DNA of 62,506 bases, filler included, from Porpidia crustulata (Eukaryota): assembly GCA_964255105.1 (NCBI GenBank). It is 6 parts of 6 records of this genome, joined end to end, with 100 filler letters (N's around TTAATTAATTAA, not from the genome) between each part and the next. Parts side by side here need not be neighbours in the genome. Positions count along the whole stretch, not along the records: positions 52,186 to 62,506 come from CAXUWE010000791.1; 5 more parts are not named here. One strand, given 5' to 3'. The notes under the pieces were generated by a model. The model searched no databases. It was given only the letters and a program-made list of their open reading frames with translations, and had not been told where the DNA came from. The position numbers and the translations under genes are program-made. How positions within the stretch are numbered: the first letter of the stretch is position 1; every line of letters starts with the position of its first letter. Below, piece by piece: positions 10,353 through 62,506 of the stretch.

Positions 10353-10452
10353 NNNNNNNNNNNNNNNNNNNNNNNNNNNNNNNNNNNNNNNNNNNNTTAA
10401 TTAATTAANNNNNNNNNNNNNNNNNNNNNNNNNNNNNNNNNNNNNNNNNNNN
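10353..10452. other. Artificial contig linker (44N-TTAATTAATTAA-44N)
   Basis: Seen directly; the core encodes stops in all six frames. Confidence 0.98.
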
Positions 10453-20796: not shown

Positions 20797-20896
20797 NNNN
20801 NNNNNNNNNNNNNNNNNNNNNNNNNNNNNNNNNNNNNNNNTTAATTAATTAANNNNNNNNNNNNNNNNNNNNNNNNNNNNNNNNNNNNNNNNNNNN
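20797..20896. other. Artificial contig linker
   Basis: 44N-TTAATTAATTAA-44N. Confidence 0.98.
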
Positions 20897-31229: not shown

Positions 31230-31329
31230 NNNNNNNNNNNNNNNNNNNNNNNNNNNNNNNNNNNNNNNNNNNNTTAATTAATTAANNNNNNNNNNNNNNN
31301 NNNNNNNNNNNNNNNNNNNNNNNNNNNNN
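31230..31329. other. Artificial contig linker
   Basis: 44N-TTAATTAATTAA-44N. Confidence 0.98.
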
Positions 31330-41659: not shown

Positions 41660-41759
41660 NNNNNNNNNNNNNNNNNNNNNNNNNNNNNNNNNNNNNNNNN
41701 NNNTTAATTAATTAANNNNNNNNNNNNNNNNNNNNNNNNNNNNNNNNNNNNNNNNNNNN
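41660..41759. other. Artificial contig linker
   Basis: 44N-TTAATTAATTAA-44N. Confidence 0.98.
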
Positions 41760-52085: not shown

Positions 52086-52185
52086 NNNNNNNNNNNNNNN
52101 NNNNNNNNNNNNNNNNNNNNNNNNNNNNNTTAATTAATTAANNNNNNNNNNNNNNNNNNNNNNNNNNNNNNNNNNNNNNNNNNNN
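52086..52185. other. Artificial contig linker
   Basis: 44N-TTAATTAATTAA-44N. Confidence 0.98.
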
Positions 52186-52212
52186 CCCACCCACCCATCC
52201 AACAAGCTAAAC

Positions 52213-55200
52213 CTAAACCTCCTCACCATCCTCCTCAGCCACATTGTCATGAAAAGTCTTACCCTCCGTCGTACGATTGATAACCCCAACCCGAATGACA
52301 AAATCCCCAAACCGCTCGCCCTCTTGCCTCTCGCCCGCGTAACGCTTGAGCAAGAGCTTCATAATAGCCAAAATCTCCTCCTCCTGGATGGAACTGCGGT
52401 AGAGCTTGTTGAGGCGGTGGCCGTGGTAGCCGCCGCCGAGGTACATATTGTAGGCGCCATAGGCCTTGCCGACGAAGGCGACCTCGGCGAGCCAGGGGCG
52501 GGCGCAGCCGTTAGGGCAGCCGGTCATGCGCATCACGATGCTGTCCTGCGCGAGCCCGTTCTCCTCCAGGCAGGTCTCGAGCTTGGCGATGAGCTCGGGC
52601 AGGTAGCGTTCGGATTCGGCCATGGCGAGACCGCAGGTAGGGAAGGCGACGCAGGCGCTGGAGCTGAGGCGGAGGCCGGAGAAGTGCACGTTGTCGAGCT
52701 TGTGTTTTTTCATCAGGGCTTTGATGGTGTCCATTTCTGGGTCCGGGACGTTGGAGAGACAGAGGTGCTGGTTTCCGGTGAGGCGGAACTCGCCCTTGTG
52801 GATTTTTGCGATTTCGCGGAGGCCGGTTTTCATGGGGTACTCTGCCGTGTCTTCGACGCGGCCGTTTTCAATAAAAAATGTGAAGTGGTTCATGCCAAAT
52901 TCGTCTTTTTGCCAGCCAAAGGTGTCGATGTTGGATTTGAATTCAAAGGGGCGGGGATCCTCAAATTTATACCCTAAGAGGTCTTCGACTTTACTTTTAA
53001 ACACGTCAACACCCATGTCATCAATGGTGTACTTTAGCCTTGCGTGCTTGCGATTCGTACGGTCTCCGTTATCACGCTGCACTAGCATGATTTTTTCGCA
53101 GGCAAAGTGGACTTTGTTCGCGGGCACGTAGCCTAGCATGCTGCCTGTACGGGGGTAGGTCTTCTTGTTATTGTGTGTAACGCCCATGCCTCCACCTGCT
53201 AGCACGTTGAAGCCTTCGAGGCGGCCGTTGGGGCCTTTGATCGCAATCAGACCAACATCGTGGGCATAGACATCCGTGTCATTGTGAGGCGGGATGGCGA
53301 TAGTGATCTTGAATTTCCGGGGAAGATAGGTTGGACCATAGAGAGGTTCGTGATCGACAATTGCGTCGCCAGCAATCTTGGTCTGCTTATCATTCTCATC
53401 TTTGAGCCAGATCTCATGGTATGCGGTTGTTGCTGGGAGAAGATGGTCACTAATCTTTGCCGACACCTGATGGACATCACGGTGGTACGCTGATTTGGTA
53501 GGTAGGACACTACACATGACATTCCGATTGACGTCTCCGCAAGCCGCAATGGTTGTCATAAGGGCTTTGTTGATACCCCTCATGGCCGGTTTTAGTTTGC
53601 TTTTGATTACACCATGAAATTGAAAGGTCTGGCGAGTCGTGAGCTTCATTGTCTCGTTTCCATAAGCACCACTGATATGGTCCATCTGTAACCACTGCTC
53701 TGGAGTAGCAACACCGCCGTTCAGCCGACAGCGGATCATAAATGCATACGCAGGCTCGAGACCTTGCGCTTTGCGATCATCACGAAGATCTCGATCATCT
53801 TGCATATAGGTTCCGTGGAACTTGGTGAGCTGCTGGTCTGCAGCGGCAATGGCTCCAGTACTTGAATCTTCGAGACCTTCAGCAATGGTGCCACGGAGGA
53901 AGTTTGACTGGATCTTGATATCTTCATTGGTTATTGGTGGAGGCTCCTCTGGCAAGCCCTCAACCTTGTCCACTCCGAGTGCTTGCCACAATTTAGGCTC
54001 CCATTCCACGTAAGCAGTCTGATAACCATCGGGATCCTGATCATCGCCGAGTCCTATATCGGCTAGACGCTTTCCCTGAAGGAATGAGAGCCGCGCATCC
54101 AGATCTTTCCCAGATTTGTTGTAGTAAATCTTGTCCTCTTTCCTGGGCCAGTAATGGCTGTCTCCCAGAGCAAAAACGGAATACTTGATTTGAGACAAAT
54201 CCAGCTCAGCGTTATTCCTGATAGCTTCCCAGAATGCACGTCCATTCTGCGGGAACTCTCCTTGGCCTGCAACACTGGTAAAAAGAACCACATTCTCTTC
54301 CCCAGGGAGATCTTCCAACGGGTACTCATCCATAGCCATGACTAAAGTCTTCAATCCTCTGGCTTTCCCACGGTTTCCGAGTCGCTTGGCAAGACTTTCA
54401 GCGTTTCCATTGTCTGAAGCGAATAGAATAGTCATTGGCGCCCCGTAGAGGCCATCAAGCATCTTCTCATACGCGTTCTTTGCTCTTCGCTTTTGAAGAG
54501 CGCGTACTTCAGAGCCATATGATTCTGACAAATTAGCAGAAAAATCTGGATGTCTGTTCATTAATTGAGTCATGTGATTATCTCTGCGTAAAAACTCTTC
54601 CAGCTCTTGCTTGATTCGCTCGGAATCGAGTTGAAAATTCGGCTCGCCTTTATCCTCATTCTGGGGATTCCATCGGTACAACGGCCAATAACCAAGATCG
54701 ACAGCCTTCTTCGTTTCTTGCAGGACGACTAAAGGCGAGTCGTTCTCCTTGTTGTAAGGAAGGTAGGCTACAATCACCGAAGGTCCTTCGAATCGGTCTG
54801 CTTCAATCATTGCTTCGAGGACTTGCGTATACGAGCTGTACACAGCCACAGATGCAACGTATGCATTCCCAAAATTCATAGCGTAGAGCCCAATGTCCTT
54901 CTTTCTTCGTACTGCATCAGCCGCTGCTCGTTCCGACCATGGCTGTGAATCGATGATCAACATGTTTACATTCGCTCCTGACGCGATGACATGGTGGACT
55001 CCCGAATTACCAAGATCATAAGCCCAGGCGTCAGATCCGATGAGCCATTGAGATTCCTTAAAGAATAGGGATTTAGAGGAAAGGAGCCGCGAAGCTAATC
55101 TTGATCCGTCGGTATCAAGTCGTGCAATGACCTCCGGAGCCAGGGAATTGGCTTTCGTGGAATCTTCTGCAGAGAGCGCCCACTTTGAAAGCCAGCTTCG

Positions 55201-56919
55201 AGGTGTATCCGTAGTGAAGTCTTGAGTTGTCGCCGCTGCTTGAACCTCGCTCACAAAACGTTTCCGATGATCCATTCGCGCGAGAAGCGAACCGAAGCCG
55301 TACTCAGGGTTCGCCGCGACAGTGGCAGATACCCCAGCGTGTGCGGCATCAGATCGATTAGCAAGATACAATCTTTGTCCGAATACCTGATTAAGGATTT
55401 TCATGTATGCGCTTTCGACTTTTGGCTGGTGAAGACTGTACTCAGCGAGAGGAGCTTGTGGCCACTCATTGTTGCCAATTTCAAGATTTTGAATAGGAGA
55501 TGTTGAATTGAGGTTCTGGAAAACCCCGCGTAGCGCTTGACGAGCAGTAGCACGCTCGATGTAACCAAGCTGATAGCCTACGACTAGAGGAGTCCTTCCA
55601 CTGGACGGCCCAGTTCTGAGACTTGTCAGTACATCGAGCAAGACGGGTCCCCATTTGGTAGTCTTCTTTCGAATCTGTTCCAGTACTGCGATTCTATTAA
55701 TAGACGAAGGTATCGATTCAGCCAATAAAGTACCAAGCCACGGTCTATAGAGACGGGCTGTGATGATTCCACATTTGGCAAACTCGTCGGATGGCTTTGC
55801 TGCCAGAATTCCGTCAACGAATAAACCAGTGGATCCAAATATAAACAAGGCCGACTCAGCATCATCTGGGCCTGAATATTCGAAGGCCTGATAATTTCGA
55901 CCGGTAATCGAAGCAAATTCAGACCAGATCCCAAGCAGAAACTCATAGATATCTGTGGACGTGAGAGATCTACTTGAAACAGATCCCATTGAGGTCACGG
56001 AGGAGATCGTAGGCCTGCTATCTGCACTGCTCTCACGAACTGATGAGCCAACAGACGAACCATCTCCATTTCTACCCCTCCCTTGCGACTGAGCGGGAGT
56101 TGTCTTTGCCACGGCAACTTCCTGGCTGCTGGCTGTCGGAATACTAGGCTCTGAGATATTCACCTGCCTTCCTTCATCGACATACAATGAAGTGCCGCCA
56201 ATGGAGGTGGACTGAAAAGCCCTTGCAGAGTCTATATTCAACAGGCTCTTAACTACATTACCATCCTCAGCCTGGATAGGATCATCGTCTTTCGAATTTG
56301 CGGCATCAAAGAAGTGTATGACACCTTTCCCAGACTTCAGAGCCAATGCATGTGCCGAAAGGGCAATGTCCTGACCCTCCTGGATCGTCTCCGACTGTAG
56401 GAACGTGAATCCAGACTGTCGGATCGCCGTGATCTCCGAGTAGTCTGGATGATTTGACGGATGTAGGGATACATGTATTACTATCGGGTACTGGGCCAGT
56501 TTGTAGAGATGGGGAATGGAGGAGAGGAGGACCGATGAAGATGTTGTGACCGAGACCAATTTGCCAGTACGCAGCGGTTGGAAAGCGGATAGGAATGGGT
56601 CAACATTATGTCGTAAGGCTCGTACCTATATTGAATTTTAGTATGCAGGGTTGATCATTCCTGTAGGGCGGCGTACTTCAGGGATTTCCTTCGCAATCAG
56701 GCCAGGCCATTTCGCTACGGCGAGTGCGTGCAAGTGTCTTGAGAACTCTGAGTCAGTATTGAGAGCCGGTTGAACGGAGAGCACTACATCGCTGGCAATA
56801 TATGCTATCCTCGCGACTGCAGATCGATCAGCAAACAATCTCTATGCACAAACCCCCACTTAGTGGGGCAGATGGACATTGATCATACCTGCTTCGCCAA
56901 CAGAAGCAATGGATGTCAT
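52213..56919 (-). CDS. MET5: Sulfite reductase (NADPH) beta subunit, 3 exons
   Basis: PFOR-like N-terminal region, flavodoxin domain (FASDNGNAE, SVAGQGEFP), hemoprotein domain with CVAFPTC and MTGCPNGC siroheme/4Fe-4S ligands; exon 1 MTSIASVGEA. Confidence 0.97.
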
Positions 56920-59425
56920 ATTTCGGTTTAACAATGGCTTACGGAAAAGAAGAAGATGTAGAAAATAGGAAAACAAGAATAGACTAAAGGGATTATTATC
57001 ATCATATCATTAATCATGACGAGAAGTCCAAAGGCAAACTCTGGAGAGACTTTTTGTCATTGACGACTCGATGATTGGCTAATTCCTGAGCACGTAATCC
57101 ACTAGGCTCTGATTAGTAATGGCTTGCTTAGGTAAGATGGGAATCTGGATTCACCATTCATCCATATGAGAGCAGAAACAATTGACAACAGATTTGGATC
57201 GGACAATAATTCAAGTATCATAAGGCCAAGTCATCAATGTATCGATTAGGAAAATCGAGTCTGTTGAGCTCTCGAGTCCATCTACTTATCCGGAAAGCGA
57301 TCATTGTTAATGGCTATTTGCACCCATTGAAGCGACAGATAGATTGTTCTGACCAGATCAATTTGAAAAGAACTCCATGGCCGAAGAGACGACAAATTGA
57401 GTCTGATCCCCGGCAATGCCGACAAGAATGCCAACATCCTCAGCGTCCGTTCAATGAATATGCGCCCATGCAACGGATACCTTGCTTTATTAGCCACGTT
57501 GGTCTTTCGAAGAGGCCACTCAGCTTTTCTTAGATCGATGAATGATTGACTCGTCATTACTACAACTGCATATACGATCCATTTCGTCCTTTTTCCTTTC
57601 AGCGTTCCTTTGAAAATGAACTATCAGTAAGCAATCCTTTCTTTGATACATCCTGAAGTGTCGGACGTTAAAACTGTTCCTCTGTCAGCCTGCATTTCAA
57701 AGTATTGAAGTAGCTAGAAAATATGGATATGTAATGGTTGTGCAGATCCCAATTTGGGCTGCTTCTTTCTGTTGCAATATGTGTAAGTTGGGTTCCTACG
57801 ACTCTATGCAACTCACATTGGCTAGATCTCCTGTTGAGCCATGGTCTACAAAGTAATTCAATGACTTTCCGATGCTATGATACTGATATTGTCAAGTCTA
57901 TCTTGGCGTGCTTTGAAATCTTGACTCGTTCGATAGGGACACTTATAGTAGCGAACACTTCCGAGTATTTCTGCTCCAAAAGAACCAATTAGAACAAAAT
58001 GCTGTATGGCTGACCGTGCCTCGCGGTTGTGAACGATGCTAATTGATATACATGGCATTGAAGATTTTTTCCGGCTTTTTTCAATACTGCCACTAATAGA
58101 GCGTTGAATATTATCCAGCAGTAAGACACTCGCAGGACGTTGTTTGACTCCTCGATTGCCTGCACATTATGTTATCTATACCTTGAAGACAATGCCCATC
58201 TTCTTGTCACTCGAGATTGGTACGTTGTCTAAGCCTCTGCCATTGCGTTTAGTTCTACTTCCTGGGCCCCAAACGCAATACAACAAGCAACATCCGATAG
58301 ACCCAGGACTGCAGAAGGCGGCGCTATGGATTCGTTGGTGACTTATTTTCACCTGACAACAATTATTCCCGCTTCAGGGCACAAGGTTGAGGTGCTGAGA
58401 TATTGAAATACTGTCTGGTCCTCGGCCAGAGAACTTAGTTCCGGGCTCGATGCGGCACCTAATCCACCGCCAATGTCCGTCGGCCGACCTCCGTAGAAGT
58501 AAAAATCAAGCAGGAATGAATATAGTGCTGCGCCCCATGGCAAAATCCACAAGTATGAGATTAGCCGCAAGCACACAGCAAACAACTAACGGGCCTAGGC
58601 TCGTTAGCAAAGAGGAATGAGAGGAGCGGTGTCGAATATGATGTCCTCTATACACGATTGGTCGGCATCTGGCGTTATGCTCCAATACGCCTCTCTTTTT
58701 TCTCGACGCTGATCGTGACAGTCTTCCAGAGCCAATGTCTGAAGTTGCATGGCAAGCTGTTGGCTTCTCTACCGCCCAGAAAATTCCGTTGTCATTGGCT
58801 AAACTTTGCCCCGAATACGATCATGTCGGCCAAGTAGGAGTTCCACTAGACATAGCATATCTGGTTTCTTCCACCCTCTAATAACAATTCTTGGAGAAAG
58901 TCGGTCATTTGGACGACAAGCATGTGAATTTTTGACACCCATCATCAGTTAACGAAAGCGTGCTAGATATAAGCTGAATAAGTGACAGTTGCTACATAAG
59001 CCTGAGACAACACAAAGGAGATGAGATTCGGAGTTTTGTGATCATTTGGCATAATAATCGAATGGGATATTCAAGGAGTAGTCTTGTGAGAACGGGTACT
59101 TCACGCGTTACATCATTAACGTTCAAGAAAAGATGTACATATCATACATCGTACACTCTGTGAGATGCTTTTGGTTACCGTGACACGTACAAATTGACCG
59201 TGGAAACCTATGTGCCAATTCAGCCAGTCACCTCTCGCTAAGAAGATACTTAGCCCTAACCCTATGTATGATGACCGGTTGAGGGGTATGATCGAGTGAG
59301 AGATGAGTGAGAGTCAATCATAAGCACGAATGACACCGCTAGGTACAGACTTGGCTGCTTAGATTTGAGTATCCACAGCTATTTCGACCGAAGTATTTGT
59401 TTCCCATGTCTTGACAGCGTCTACG

Positions 59426-60360
59426 ATGGATGAGAAGACTAGTATTGAAAGTGACCCTACTCCCCATAACTCTCCTTCATCACATTGGTACCGCATGCCG
59501 AATTTACGGCTCTCCCACTCGCGTCGAATACTTATAGTAATCCTTTCTTTGCTTCTACCTGTCTATGTACTTCTCCGATTCCTGAATTTCTCCGGTACAA
59601 CATTCTGGGACTATGATTCTTCATTAGTGCCGCAAGTTCAGACAACTTTGGCCACCAACGCATCTGCTCTGGTGCCCTTGGAAGCCCATGTCATGTCCAA
59701 ATGCCCTGATGCTCGGGACTGCCTCCGGGACTTGATTGTTCCTGCCATGGAGAAGATTGCGGATGAGGTGGAATTTCGGCTTTCATTCATTGCAACGTGA
59801 GTTCCTGCTGTCCTTCTGTCCAAGACTGAAGTGTTTCCTGAGCCTCGATCCTCCGCCCTGCCGTCGAGACTTACGTGACCGACATCGTTTGTGTCCACCT
59901 AGATGACGCATGGCTGATCATGATATTGCTATCTAGCATCGACTCCGATGACGGTATCCATTGCATGCACGGCGAAACCGAATGCCTGGGCAACATGCTC
60001 TCCCTCTGCGCCCACAGTCTCTTCCCGAATAATACCCGCATCTCCCTCGGCTTCAGTACCTGCCTCATCATGTCCTATCGCCGCATTCCTGACCGCGACC
60101 TCGTTGAGAACTGTGCCCTAGAACATGGCATAGAATTTGAGAAGATCAATGCGTGTATCAGCGATGAGGGCAAGGGATTGGACCTGCTAATGGACAGTGT
60201 GGAAAGGAGTCTGAATGCTGGTGTGAAGAAGAGCTGTACAGTGAGGGTCGGTGGGGAAACTTGGTGTGTCAGGGATGGAGGTGAATGGAAGGATTGTGAT
60301 GGGGGCCACGAGGTTGATGACTTGGTCAAAGAGGTCAAGAGGCGGTATAAAATACGATGA
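59426..60360 (+). CDS. GILT (gamma-interferon-inducible lysosomal thiol reductase)-like protein, 2 exons (intron 59797-59936)
   Basis: N-terminal TM anchor; VPLEAHVMSKCPDARDC, CMHGETECLGN, KSCTVRV and CVRDGGEWKDC. Confidence 0.88.
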
Positions 60361-61427
60361 GGAGTTGTCGGATAGCGTTTCAGGTTTCGTCTTTTTGGAC
60401 TTTTACAAGGAAATACCCGCTATCAAAAGAAAGGCATTTACAAACCCCCCTGGTGATGTCGGACAGATTATCAAATGACAACCTGAGGACGTCGCTTGTC
60501 TTTTCATCGTTGAGGGGTCGCGCACGAATAAGGAAAAGCATGGATGAGTTCCCAAGGTCAGTACGAACCAACCCTCGATCTAATCTGCAAGTTTCTTGCA
60601 CAGGTGCAAATATTGGTTTTCTCATTCTACACGTGGTGTACCACTTGAGTACTGCCAGACTCGGAGTTGTCTTAATGAAAGTATTGCAAACCATCATTTA
60701 AAGCGGCTCCTTGTGCGATCACAAACGAATCTGAAGTGCAGACTTTTGGTGAGTCTACGATCCACAAGTACTGATGGGCATTCGATGGGTCGACCATCCG
60801 GTCGGGTCCTACAGTGGGTCACTCATCCCAACTTCTCCCACGCTTGACTATTCTCTTTGCCACCGAGCCCTCAAGGAATCGTCTTCCATGGCTCGTGTAT
60901 TGCCAAAGCTTGGTTCTTCCCTCTTCAAGCTGAGATTCTACAATTCTACGATTGGACGCAGTCCGGTGAGAATGTGAGAGACAAAATCTCATAGCCATCA
61001 GCCACAGCTTCTAATCTTTCGGGAATTCTTTCACATACGATTGCCAACCTATTACTCATCGCGAAATCTCCAGCAGAGTTTTCCAACCAATCTGTGGATG
61101 GATTGGTGCCAGCGATTATGAATTAAGATCGAAGGATATTTGCTCAAAAACCCAATCTTTATGCTTGCCAAGCTCGTGGACCACTCTGTCGGACCCTTAT
61201 AATGGCGCTGCATCATCCTGAAACGACCAAAGTGCGCACATTTCCAAGGTTGGAGACTCTCAAGGGTACTCTAAGACGATTCAATGAGGATTGCCCTCCG
61301 ATTCCTCCGTCTGAAGGGGAGTAGCGGAAGCTCGCAATCCGGTACCATGCGCACAGTCATTTTCTCAAGGCAAAACTTGCCCCAACGAATTTCTTATTCT
61401 GATTGTGCCACTCGCCTGGTTGAACCA

Positions 61428-61560
61428 TATAAACCTCCTTCTCTTTCTCTTGATATCAATTCCAACCTTCTTTCACTTCCCAACTCTCACACTCGTTCTC
61501 TCACTCGTCCTCAAAGCTATTCTCTCACTCGTTCAATACCTGTATCCTTTCATTCTGCAA
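61428..61560 (+). promoter_or_regulatory. TATA box and CT-rich leader upstream of ATG 61563
   Basis: TATAAA at 61428 followed by a pyrimidine-rich tract with repeated CTCTCACTCGT, typical of strongly expressed fungal genes. Confidence 0.55.
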
Positions 61561-61562
61561 TC

Positions 61563-62506
61563 ATGAAGAGCGGCTTCGCTCTTGCGGCTCTCACGGCCCT
61601 TCCCTCTGCCCTTGCAGTCCTCCGCCCGCCGATCTCTCTCAACGGCACTATCTTTGTCAATGCAACAAGGTCTATCAATGAGACTTTTGCCGTCAATGGA
61701 ACCATCAACGTCAATTTCACCACTGGCAGCAACAACACCCTCACCATCAACGGAAGCGTCGACGTCGATTCCTCCGATAGCGAGACCCTGTCTCGCCGTC
61801 CCGCTGAAGAGAAGTTCGTCTGCCGGGGATCTGATTGCCCCACACTTCGCATCCCCTTGAGCGAACCCATCATCACCCCCATTGACGGGGTAAGCTGCAT
61901 AGGCCGTGAGTGCTACAGTCATCCCCCCGTCACTACCGATATTCCGGATTTTCCAATCGATCTCGATCATGTCGTTGGCGTCGAACCTGAGTGCCGTGAT
62001 CTAGACGGTCACCTTAGCGATCGCTGCATCCCTCACCCGCCCGTTGACGATTTCGATTGCATCGGTCCTGCCTGCCCCGAACGCTATTGGCGTAGTAGCA
62101 AAGTCGTGCCTCGTCAGCCCGCTGACGAGTACATGTGTAACGGCTTTAATTGTCAAGACGGAAAGACTCGCAGGTCCACCGTGGTCGATCCCCTGTTCAA
62201 CTCCCCAATGATCAACAATTACATCAGGACGACGACCAACAGCGAAAACACCATCAACACGATCAATCCGGTCCACATCAACGCCAACATCTCCATCACT
62301 GTCCTCGCCGCCTTCAAACTCAACGTGATCAATTACTACCAACCCTCGCCGTTGTACTTCATCGCCAAGTTCTGCTCCGCGTGCGAGCTCATCTACGTCC
62401 TGAAGCCGAACAACACCATCGTCGAGGCCCCCGCGTGTTCGACCTGCGCACCAGCTCCATCGAACCCCCTCACCATCGTTCCCACCGGCCGCTTCAACTA
62501 CACCAT
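61563..62506 (+). CDS. Secreted modular Cys/Asn-rich protein of unknown family, open to the window end (at least 314 aa); absent from the ORF track
   Basis: Manual translation is stop-free from ATG 61563: MKSGFALAALTALPSALA|VLRPPISLNGTIFVNATRSINETF.. with strong C-ending codon bias and an upstream TATA box. Confidence 0.85.
   Translation, partial: MKSGFALAALTALPSALAVLRPPISLNGTIFVNATRSINETFAVNGTINVNFTTGSNNTLTINGSVDVDSSDSETLSRRPAEEKFVCRGSDCPTLRIPLSEPIITPIDGVSCIGRECYSHPPVTTDIPDFPIDLDHVVGVEPECRDLDGHLSDRCIPHPPVDDFDCIGPACPERYWRSSKVVPRQPADEYMCNGFNCQDGKTRRSTVVDPLFNSPMINNYIRTTTNSENTINTINPVHINANISITVLAAFKLNVINYYQPSPLYFIAKFCSACELIYVLKPNNTIVEAPACSTCAPAPSNPLTIVPTGRFNYT

Follow-up and report, generated by a model that had tools for sequence, protein, structure and literature searches.

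The window analysed here, 62,506 nucleotides in all, is made of six joined contigs from a fungal assembly of Porpidia crustulata (22.9 Mb; 2,447 contigs). The contigs are unrelated and separated by N spacers at window positions 10353-10452, 20797-20896, 31230-31329, 41660-41759 and 52086-52185, so that the true neighbourhood of the gene described below is only 52186-62506. Genes for a sulfite reductase and a GILT-family thiol reductase lie in this neighbourhood together with the gene of interest. The GILT gene has two exons (59426-60360, plus strand), is directly upstream of the Cys-rich gene studied here and finds short matches in sequencing runs X2 and X3. The gene itself is an open frame that starts at ATG 61563 on the plus strand and continues for 314 codons without a stop up to the contig end at 62506, which cuts the frame and leaves the C-terminus missing. 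Its features, in order, are as follows (aa, amino acid positions; h, hydrophobic).

61425..61562, plus strand: TATA-like box, then a leader rich in pyrimidines that contains three CT-rich copies of 14 nt (repeat family D2), read from the sequence, with a putative function
61563..61616, plus strand: start codon and probable signal peptide, aa 1-18, judged by eye from the hydropathy profile
61641..61766, plus strand: seven hexads N-x-T/S-h-x-h, aa 27-68, from sequence, shuffles and phase statistics
61767..61802, plus strand: acidic Ser-rich linker ending in RR (aa 78-79), then Pro, from sequence
61821..62153, plus strand: acidic Pro-rich spacer, aa 87-197, with four C-x-G-x-x-C and one C-x10-C, from sequence; no homologue found
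62169..62174, plus strand: dibasic RR, aa 203-204, a possible Kex2-type cut directly before the conserved domain, processing being putative
62187..62450, plus strand: unnamed conserved domain, aa 209-296, from matches to the relatives P0002 and P0003; no Pfam family
62475..62506, plus strand: one VPTG unit and one sequon, then the contig end; P0003 has 15 PTG units after the same domain

The partial protein of 314 residues is hydrophobic over aa 1-18 and contains 14 Cys, two RR sites and 10 sequons. It had been described in advance as secreted by way of a signal peptide; the hydrophobic start agrees with this by eye, and the protein would then enter the secretory pathway. In the spacer region we found an internal duplication at 106 codons (repeat family D1, 71% over 34 nt), and window positions 61778-62174 hold two duplicated units, each with R-x-P-A-(E/D)-E at its start and C-x-G-x-x-C at its end. 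Were the chain cleaved at both PR184 and RR204, a peptide of some 20 residues holding one predicted disulfide would be released. The protein is presumably not a typical Kex2 repeat precursor since it has only two dibasic sites.

Codons ending in C make up 55% of this frame, nine further frames in the window have 21-41%, and within the gene's own reading frame the share is 0.29 upstream of the ATG versus 0.55 inside. The gene appears strongly codon-biased and behaves like a strongly expressed gene. A contig from sequencing run X1 is identical to the window at every letter of 59300-62463; since run X1 could stem from the very sample that gave the window, the match checks the assembly only. In runs X2 and X3 we found nothing that covers the coding region. 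Recovery of the full gene had been proposed as a check, and its continuation past 62506 was not found by DNA overlap, by loose motif patterns or among the contigs of the sequencing runs. Four protein queries run against the fungus's own genome for paralogues matched only this locus. A two-hexad DNA pattern gave 50 matches in the same genome versus 47 in a control, three of them clustered only here, and a second pattern gave 2 matches, the other one in a short open frame that lacks a signal peptide.

In frame with the ATG, positions 61641-61766 of the plus strand translate as NGTIFV NATRSI NETFAV NGTINV NFTTGS NNTLTI NGSVDV. Sequons start at aa 27, 33, 39, 45, 51, 57 and 63 (NxT in 6/7, NxS in 1/7), so that the seven N-glycosylation sequons in exact six-residue period of the preliminary description are confirmed by translation, as is its remark that most hexads end hydrophobic-x-hydrophobic (5/7). 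Such a run is far from random expectation. Shuffling the 314-residue protein 100,000 times gave a longest sequon run of 3 at period 6 and of 4 at any period from 3 to 12; shuffling the 42-residue block itself 200,000 times gave 4 and 5, respectively, and no shuffled run ever exceeded 5. Other open frames of at least 60 aa, translated in six frames from the window and further stretches of the genome (98,056 residues), had no sequon run longer than 2. The hydrophobic residues are in phase as well: V, I, L or F account for 13 of the 42 block residues and occupy hexad positions 4 and 6 in 11/14 cases, which with N and T/S held fixed has P=0.0009 (0.005 when any two columns are allowed). Hexads 1, 4 and 7 are the most alike, each reading N-G-T/S-I/V-x-V, and carry a weak 18-residue super-period, seen as lag-3 DNA identity that 64 of the 5,040 orderings attain (P=0.013). 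At third codon positions the identity across hexads is 0.43 for N and 0.33 for T/S, with free codons at 0.33; the codon for the last hexad residue ends in C in all hexads. The phased hydrophobics, the diverged silent sites and the 18-residue super-period are the reasons why the pattern looks selected, as far as the sequence of a single gene can suggest it. Recent tandem DNA slippage was rejected as its origin, since adjacent hexads are only 0.54 identical in DNA and the silent sites have diverged.

To place this value we can compare it with hexad arrays elsewhere. Scans for four consecutive N-x-T/S hexads returned at least 120 stretches from prokaryote genomes, at least 121 from viral contigs and at least 117 from metagenomes. 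Among the matches listed from these contigs, at least 325 frames have runs of four hexads or more, at least 81 of which have seven or more; many of the listed arrays are non-coding, collagen-like or plain linkers. The hexad sequon repeat is not rare as a DNA pattern and is easy to create. Among the same listed matches (n=325) the medians of adjacent-hexad DNA identity are 0.89-0.93, and an identity below 0.65 is found in 9/325. What is unusual here is that the hexads seem to have been kept at the protein level while their DNA diverged. A collagen-type G-x-y repeat accounts for many of the viral GVNGTS matches and was rejected for the fungal block, which is Gly-poor.

One of 29 hexad-array proteins scanned passes the Bactofilin beta-helix cut-off (7e-7). 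This bacterial protein, P0004 (L121 1-663, plus strand), consists of near-perfect VNGTLN repeats and has a weak likeness to phage central spikes (best E 8e-4). Sequons are found in 7/17 of its V-x-G units, whereas the fungal block keeps N and T/S in 7/7 hexads and G in only 3/7, which suggests that here the sequon itself has been selected. Archaeal proteins with runs of 4-6 V/I-N-x-T hexads were seen at L080 3-3065 (minus), L091 3-3065 (minus), L049 3-2156 (minus) and L055 1279-1962 (plus). They belong to Nitrosopumilaceae, with laminin-G and MG2 domains, and to Thermoplasmata, L049 with a double zinc ribbon; the hexads are diverged in L080, L049 and L055 and could be archaeal glycan rows. A recurring phage protein has up to 20 GVNxSx hexads (L157, L173, L175, L188, L207, L214 and other viral loci). 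The copy at L214 also has a DUF7666 domain, and two others that were scanned showed no family above the cut-off.

A search of 1.84 billion representatives found two relatives with E-values of 7.8e-4 and 8.4e-4, near the threshold and matching only aa 209-296. Pairwise, the domain matches P0002 and P0003 with E-values of 3e-11 and 4e-12, and each of the two, searched back against the source genome, finds only the locus of the hexad block. The domain spans aa 3-66 in P0002 and aa 40-124 in P0003; it has Asn/Ile-rich strands, then VINYY, then CxxC-17-CxxC, and VINYY and CxxC...CxxC are invariant among the three members found in all. Judged by these matches, the protein is not an orphan and belongs to a putative tiny family with an unnamed Cys4 domain. 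The Cys4 domain is an undescribed wall-protein module. P0003 (MCJ1341494.1) comes from Bachmanniomyces sp. S44760, a lichen-associated Lecanoromycete, and runs from a signal peptide through the Cys4 domain, 15 PTG units, CxxC repeats and a Ser/Gly stalk to an end that by eye is GPI-like. Our frame ends at its first VPTG unit, at the point where P0003 has its PTG units, and a similar stalk probably follows. The adhesin or matrix-type role suggested beforehand gains support from this relative, which looks like a GPI-type wall protein.

Periodic sequons are absent from both relatives. P0003 reaches from signal peptide to domain within about 40 residues, with no room for hexads, and is the only full test of their absence; P0002 has no signal peptide and starts with the domain. 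Lack of the periodicity in homologues had been named in the preliminary description as evidence against its reading, and this is what the relatives display; the block is hence a lineage-specific addition. Neither block nor spacer has a homologue in any of the searches, that of 1.84 billion representatives included, and no conservation of the hexad phase can for this reason be shown. A word-indexed search with the whole protein, confined to sequences of 172-550 aa, gave 0/7,849 candidates at E 0.001, and one with the block alone 0/209 at E 10. The three-sequence domain profile recovered only its 2 seeds among 1,252 candidates and 0/292 metagenome stretches. The ESM Atlas was blank for P0001 and for aa 20-175 of P0003. 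Pfam holds no family for the protein and none for the block at E up to 10, in line with the early impression that no named family applies, and the best PHROGs matches have E-values of only 0.036-0.29. An RPS27-type zinc ribbon at aa 264-296 was considered, as CxxC...CxxC is present, and set aside as no more than a weak likeness (profile match E=0.072).

AlphaFold2, run without an alignment on a 59-residue monomer containing the block, gave no secondary structure (pLDDT 59.5, pTM 0.24), which is weak evidence and fits either an obligate oligomer or disorder as far as a model of this kind can tell. The Cys4 domain was modelled as a low-confidence alpha/beta fold (pLDDT 51). Fold searches with the two low-confidence models returned nothing or stayed below Z 4, with nothing clear for the domain, so that the check by AlphaFold and fold comparison recommended at the outset returned no fold for the block. 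Pfam profiles revealed no trimerising domain in the 314 residues. Among the open-access papers listed we found no description of a fungal hexapeptide sequon solenoid or of an N-glycosylated fungal triple beta-helix.

Our tentative preference, which we regard as quite possible, is that the protein is a secreted wall glycoprotein whose N-terminal hexads build a multi-chain, three-sided and N-glycosylated beta-prism. It would be a strongly expressed cell-wall protein with a Cys4 domain, followed probably by a Pro/Thr stalk and a GPI anchor, to which this species has added an N-terminal extension with the hexads. The seven hexads would receive N-glycans in the ER before coiling up as a parallel beta-prism, each side of which takes six residues. 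The core would be filled by hexad positions 4 and 6, N-x-T would form the corner, and the glycans would be stacked about 4.8 Å apart along the three edges. Full occupancy is uncertain, since the yeast OST under-glycosylates sites two residues apart as described in PMC6761772; the sites here are three apart and 6/7 are NxT. One chain, with its seven hexads, would complete 2.3 coils, which is not enough, and several chains must therefore join, either as 18-residue coils of separate chains stacked end to end or as three intertwined chains. We prefer stacked coils because of the 18-residue super-period and because their core layers would be mixed, whereas a C3 triple helix of the block would have one layer all Arg/Ile and one all Thr/Ser. 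The product would be a knob or fibril, short, stiff and coated with sugar, by which adjacent wall proteins are cross-linked; alternatively, cleavage at PR184/RR204 would shed the prism into the wall matrix. Three of the 14 core positions are polar (R36, T54, S56), which speaks against a prism. Of the beta segment with a glycan row anticipated in the preliminary description, the beta character and the row draw support from the phase, the super-period, the diverged silent sites and the likeness to TLP-12 discussed below, and a single-chain solenoid, at 2.3 coils, is not predicted.

The block may instead be an unstructured glycan brush or glyco-pro-region that arose from an old 18-nt duplication, a reading we consider somewhat unlikely. 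Up to seven N-glycans would aid secretion or thicken the outer mannan coat, and the region might be cut off at PR184 or RR204, so that the mature protein would begin with the Cys4 domain, as P0003 does. The absence of the block from the relatives, the dibasic site just before the start of homology and the monomer model without secondary structure are all as expected for a brush, and N-x-T/S hexad arrays arise readily, many of those among the matches listed being non-coding or plain linkers. A mere glycan brush needs no phase, however, and the phased hydrophobics (P 0.0009-0.005), like the 18-residue super-period, are left unexplained by it; for this reason we count the phase in favour of a fold. 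Nor does a brush account for N, T/S and V/I having been kept while silent sites diverged, or for almost a third of the block (13/42) being V, I, L or F.

An antiparallel five-stranded beta-meander is an unlikely third reading, even though to judge from the residues alone an amphipathic meander would fit equally well as the prism. One face would be hydrophobic and the other would bear every Asn, Thr and glycan, and the segment would dimerise or spread at air-water or hydrophobic surfaces like a glycosylated surfactant. N-G turns would fall every 18 residues at 27-28, 45-46 and 63-64, with opposite turns near 35-37 and 54-57, where the prism misfits R36, T54 and S56 are found; facing positions fit in 12/15 cases. 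V/I/L/F take even positions in 12/13 cases and the sequon Asn and Thr are all at odd ones, but this split has P=0.06 when corrected for the fixed positions of N and T/S, which is not significant, and the register is a post hoc choice. In weak alignments to blades of PQQ-type propellers, D/N-G turns recur at the same 18-residue spacing, at per-blade scores of only 4-6 bits. E40 and N58 would lie on the hydrophobic face, the exact 6-6-6 spacing would not be needed, and AlphaFold did not build the meander. A PQQ-type beta-propeller as such was rejected: there is one blade-length stretch as against six to eight blades, with at most 5.9 bits per blade among the five alignments listed, and the summed E-values reflect the repetition of blades.

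An ice-binding or ice-nucleating solenoid with Thr and Asn ladders, as also proposed beforehand, is very improbable: Thr or Ser does stand at a fixed position in 7/7 hexads and protein ice nucleators occur in some lichens and fungi according to PMC12978214, but the 42-residue block has one TxT, no SLT or YGS and no Pfam match, the fungal nucleators in that account have 23-42 repeats of 16 residues, and the Thr face would be hidden beneath the glycans if every Asn carried one.

Were the block no more than a glycan brush, what remains would be an ornament peculiar to one species, borne by a wall protein that has no name. Should the glycosylated prism be correct, the block protein would be a candidate structural component of the wall matrix in lichen-type fungi, whose proteins are to our knowledge little characterised. 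Cryo-EM has only lately begun to reveal structured glycofibrils built on short protein repeats, and most of these have not been assigned to a gene or host. With 42 residues and one sequon to each side of the proposed prism, the fungal sequence is expressible and would put in its simplest form the question whether bulky N-glycans can stack at beta-sheet spacing. The hexad block is known from one gene, incomplete at the contig end, and its structure is probably beta as predicted from the pattern.

Among known systems the hexapeptide beta-helices (PF04519, PF00132, phage spike, MyRF) share with the block a V/I-x-x-x-h-x register with two core residues per side, and the bacterial VNGTLN repeat nearly matches hexads 1, 4 and 7. 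In contrast to these helices, Gly is not fixed in the block and Asn and Thr are, each chain has 2.3 coils, and the hexad protein has no profile match to PF00132 or Bactofilin PF04519. The block also departs from the PF00132 motif, which we take to be [LIV]-[GAED]-x-x-[STAV]-x, in that its second position is Asn and its fifth mostly large. In the triple beta-helix of the MyRF stalk, as reported in PMC8326128, each layer contributes six residues to the core, spaced one apart. Dense N-glycosylation of surface Asn sequons on three-sided beta-helices is described for the adhesins EtpA/HMW1 (PMC11463764). EtpA is, by the same account, a bacterial, long single-chain helix that receives mono- or di-hexoses via EtpC at about one glycan per 24 residues, whereas the block has a potential density of one per 6 residues and would carry bulky ER-type glycans. 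InaZ-type nucleators as characterised in PMC12978214 have at least 23 16-residue repeats and TxT/SLT/YGS arrays, which the block does not have. By the tests run, the protein is not an apparent member of the TLP-12, PF00132, bactofilin or InaZ-type families.

The likeness to the TLP-12 glycofibril concerns architecture. In TLP-12 a dodecapeptide spans two prism sides, with strands at 4-6 and 10-12, a rise of 9.6 Å per twelve residues and sugars stacked at the edge (bioRxiv 2025.09.30.679562). As far as that description goes, TLP-12 and the block, the latter as a sequence pattern only, have in common six residues per side, three-residue strands at hexad 4-6 and dense periodic glycan sites, and both are eukaryotic; the core-facing strand expected at positions 4-6 has its counterpart in the 11/14 hydrophobic residues at positions 4 and 6. 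The same source gives TLP-12 as hundreds of repeats of a G1-S2-x-x-S5 dodecapeptide with glycans on Ser/Thr, in candidate proteins of about 20,000 residues from alveolates, whereas the block is fungal and has seven Asn-led hexads. TLP-12 is reported there with a C-terminal ICA chaperone, and the hexad protein has no ICA domain in its 314 aa, its C-terminus being missing. It is unlikely, on present grounds, that the block represents the first fungal and N-linked counterpart of this glycofibril, that is, a self-assembling prism with an ER-type N-glycan at each corner of each rung that would be freed by Kex2-type cleavage along with small single-disulfide peptides and polymerise within the lichen wall matrix as a fibre or film sheathed in sugar, the Cys4 domain staying GPI-anchored. 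Another setting is the profile of fungal GPI wall proteins and adhesins given in PMC6023273, of which the hexad protein has the signal peptide (by hydropathy), Cys-rich regions, repeats, dibasic sites and N-sequons; a GPI end would lie beyond the contig end. With P0003 it has the Cys4 domain and the VPTG unit in common, and only the hexad protein has the hexads and the C-x-G-x-x-C spacer. Our leading if tentative view is that the hexads could act like a short beta-prism of hexapeptide units carried by a wall glycoprotein of the fungus.
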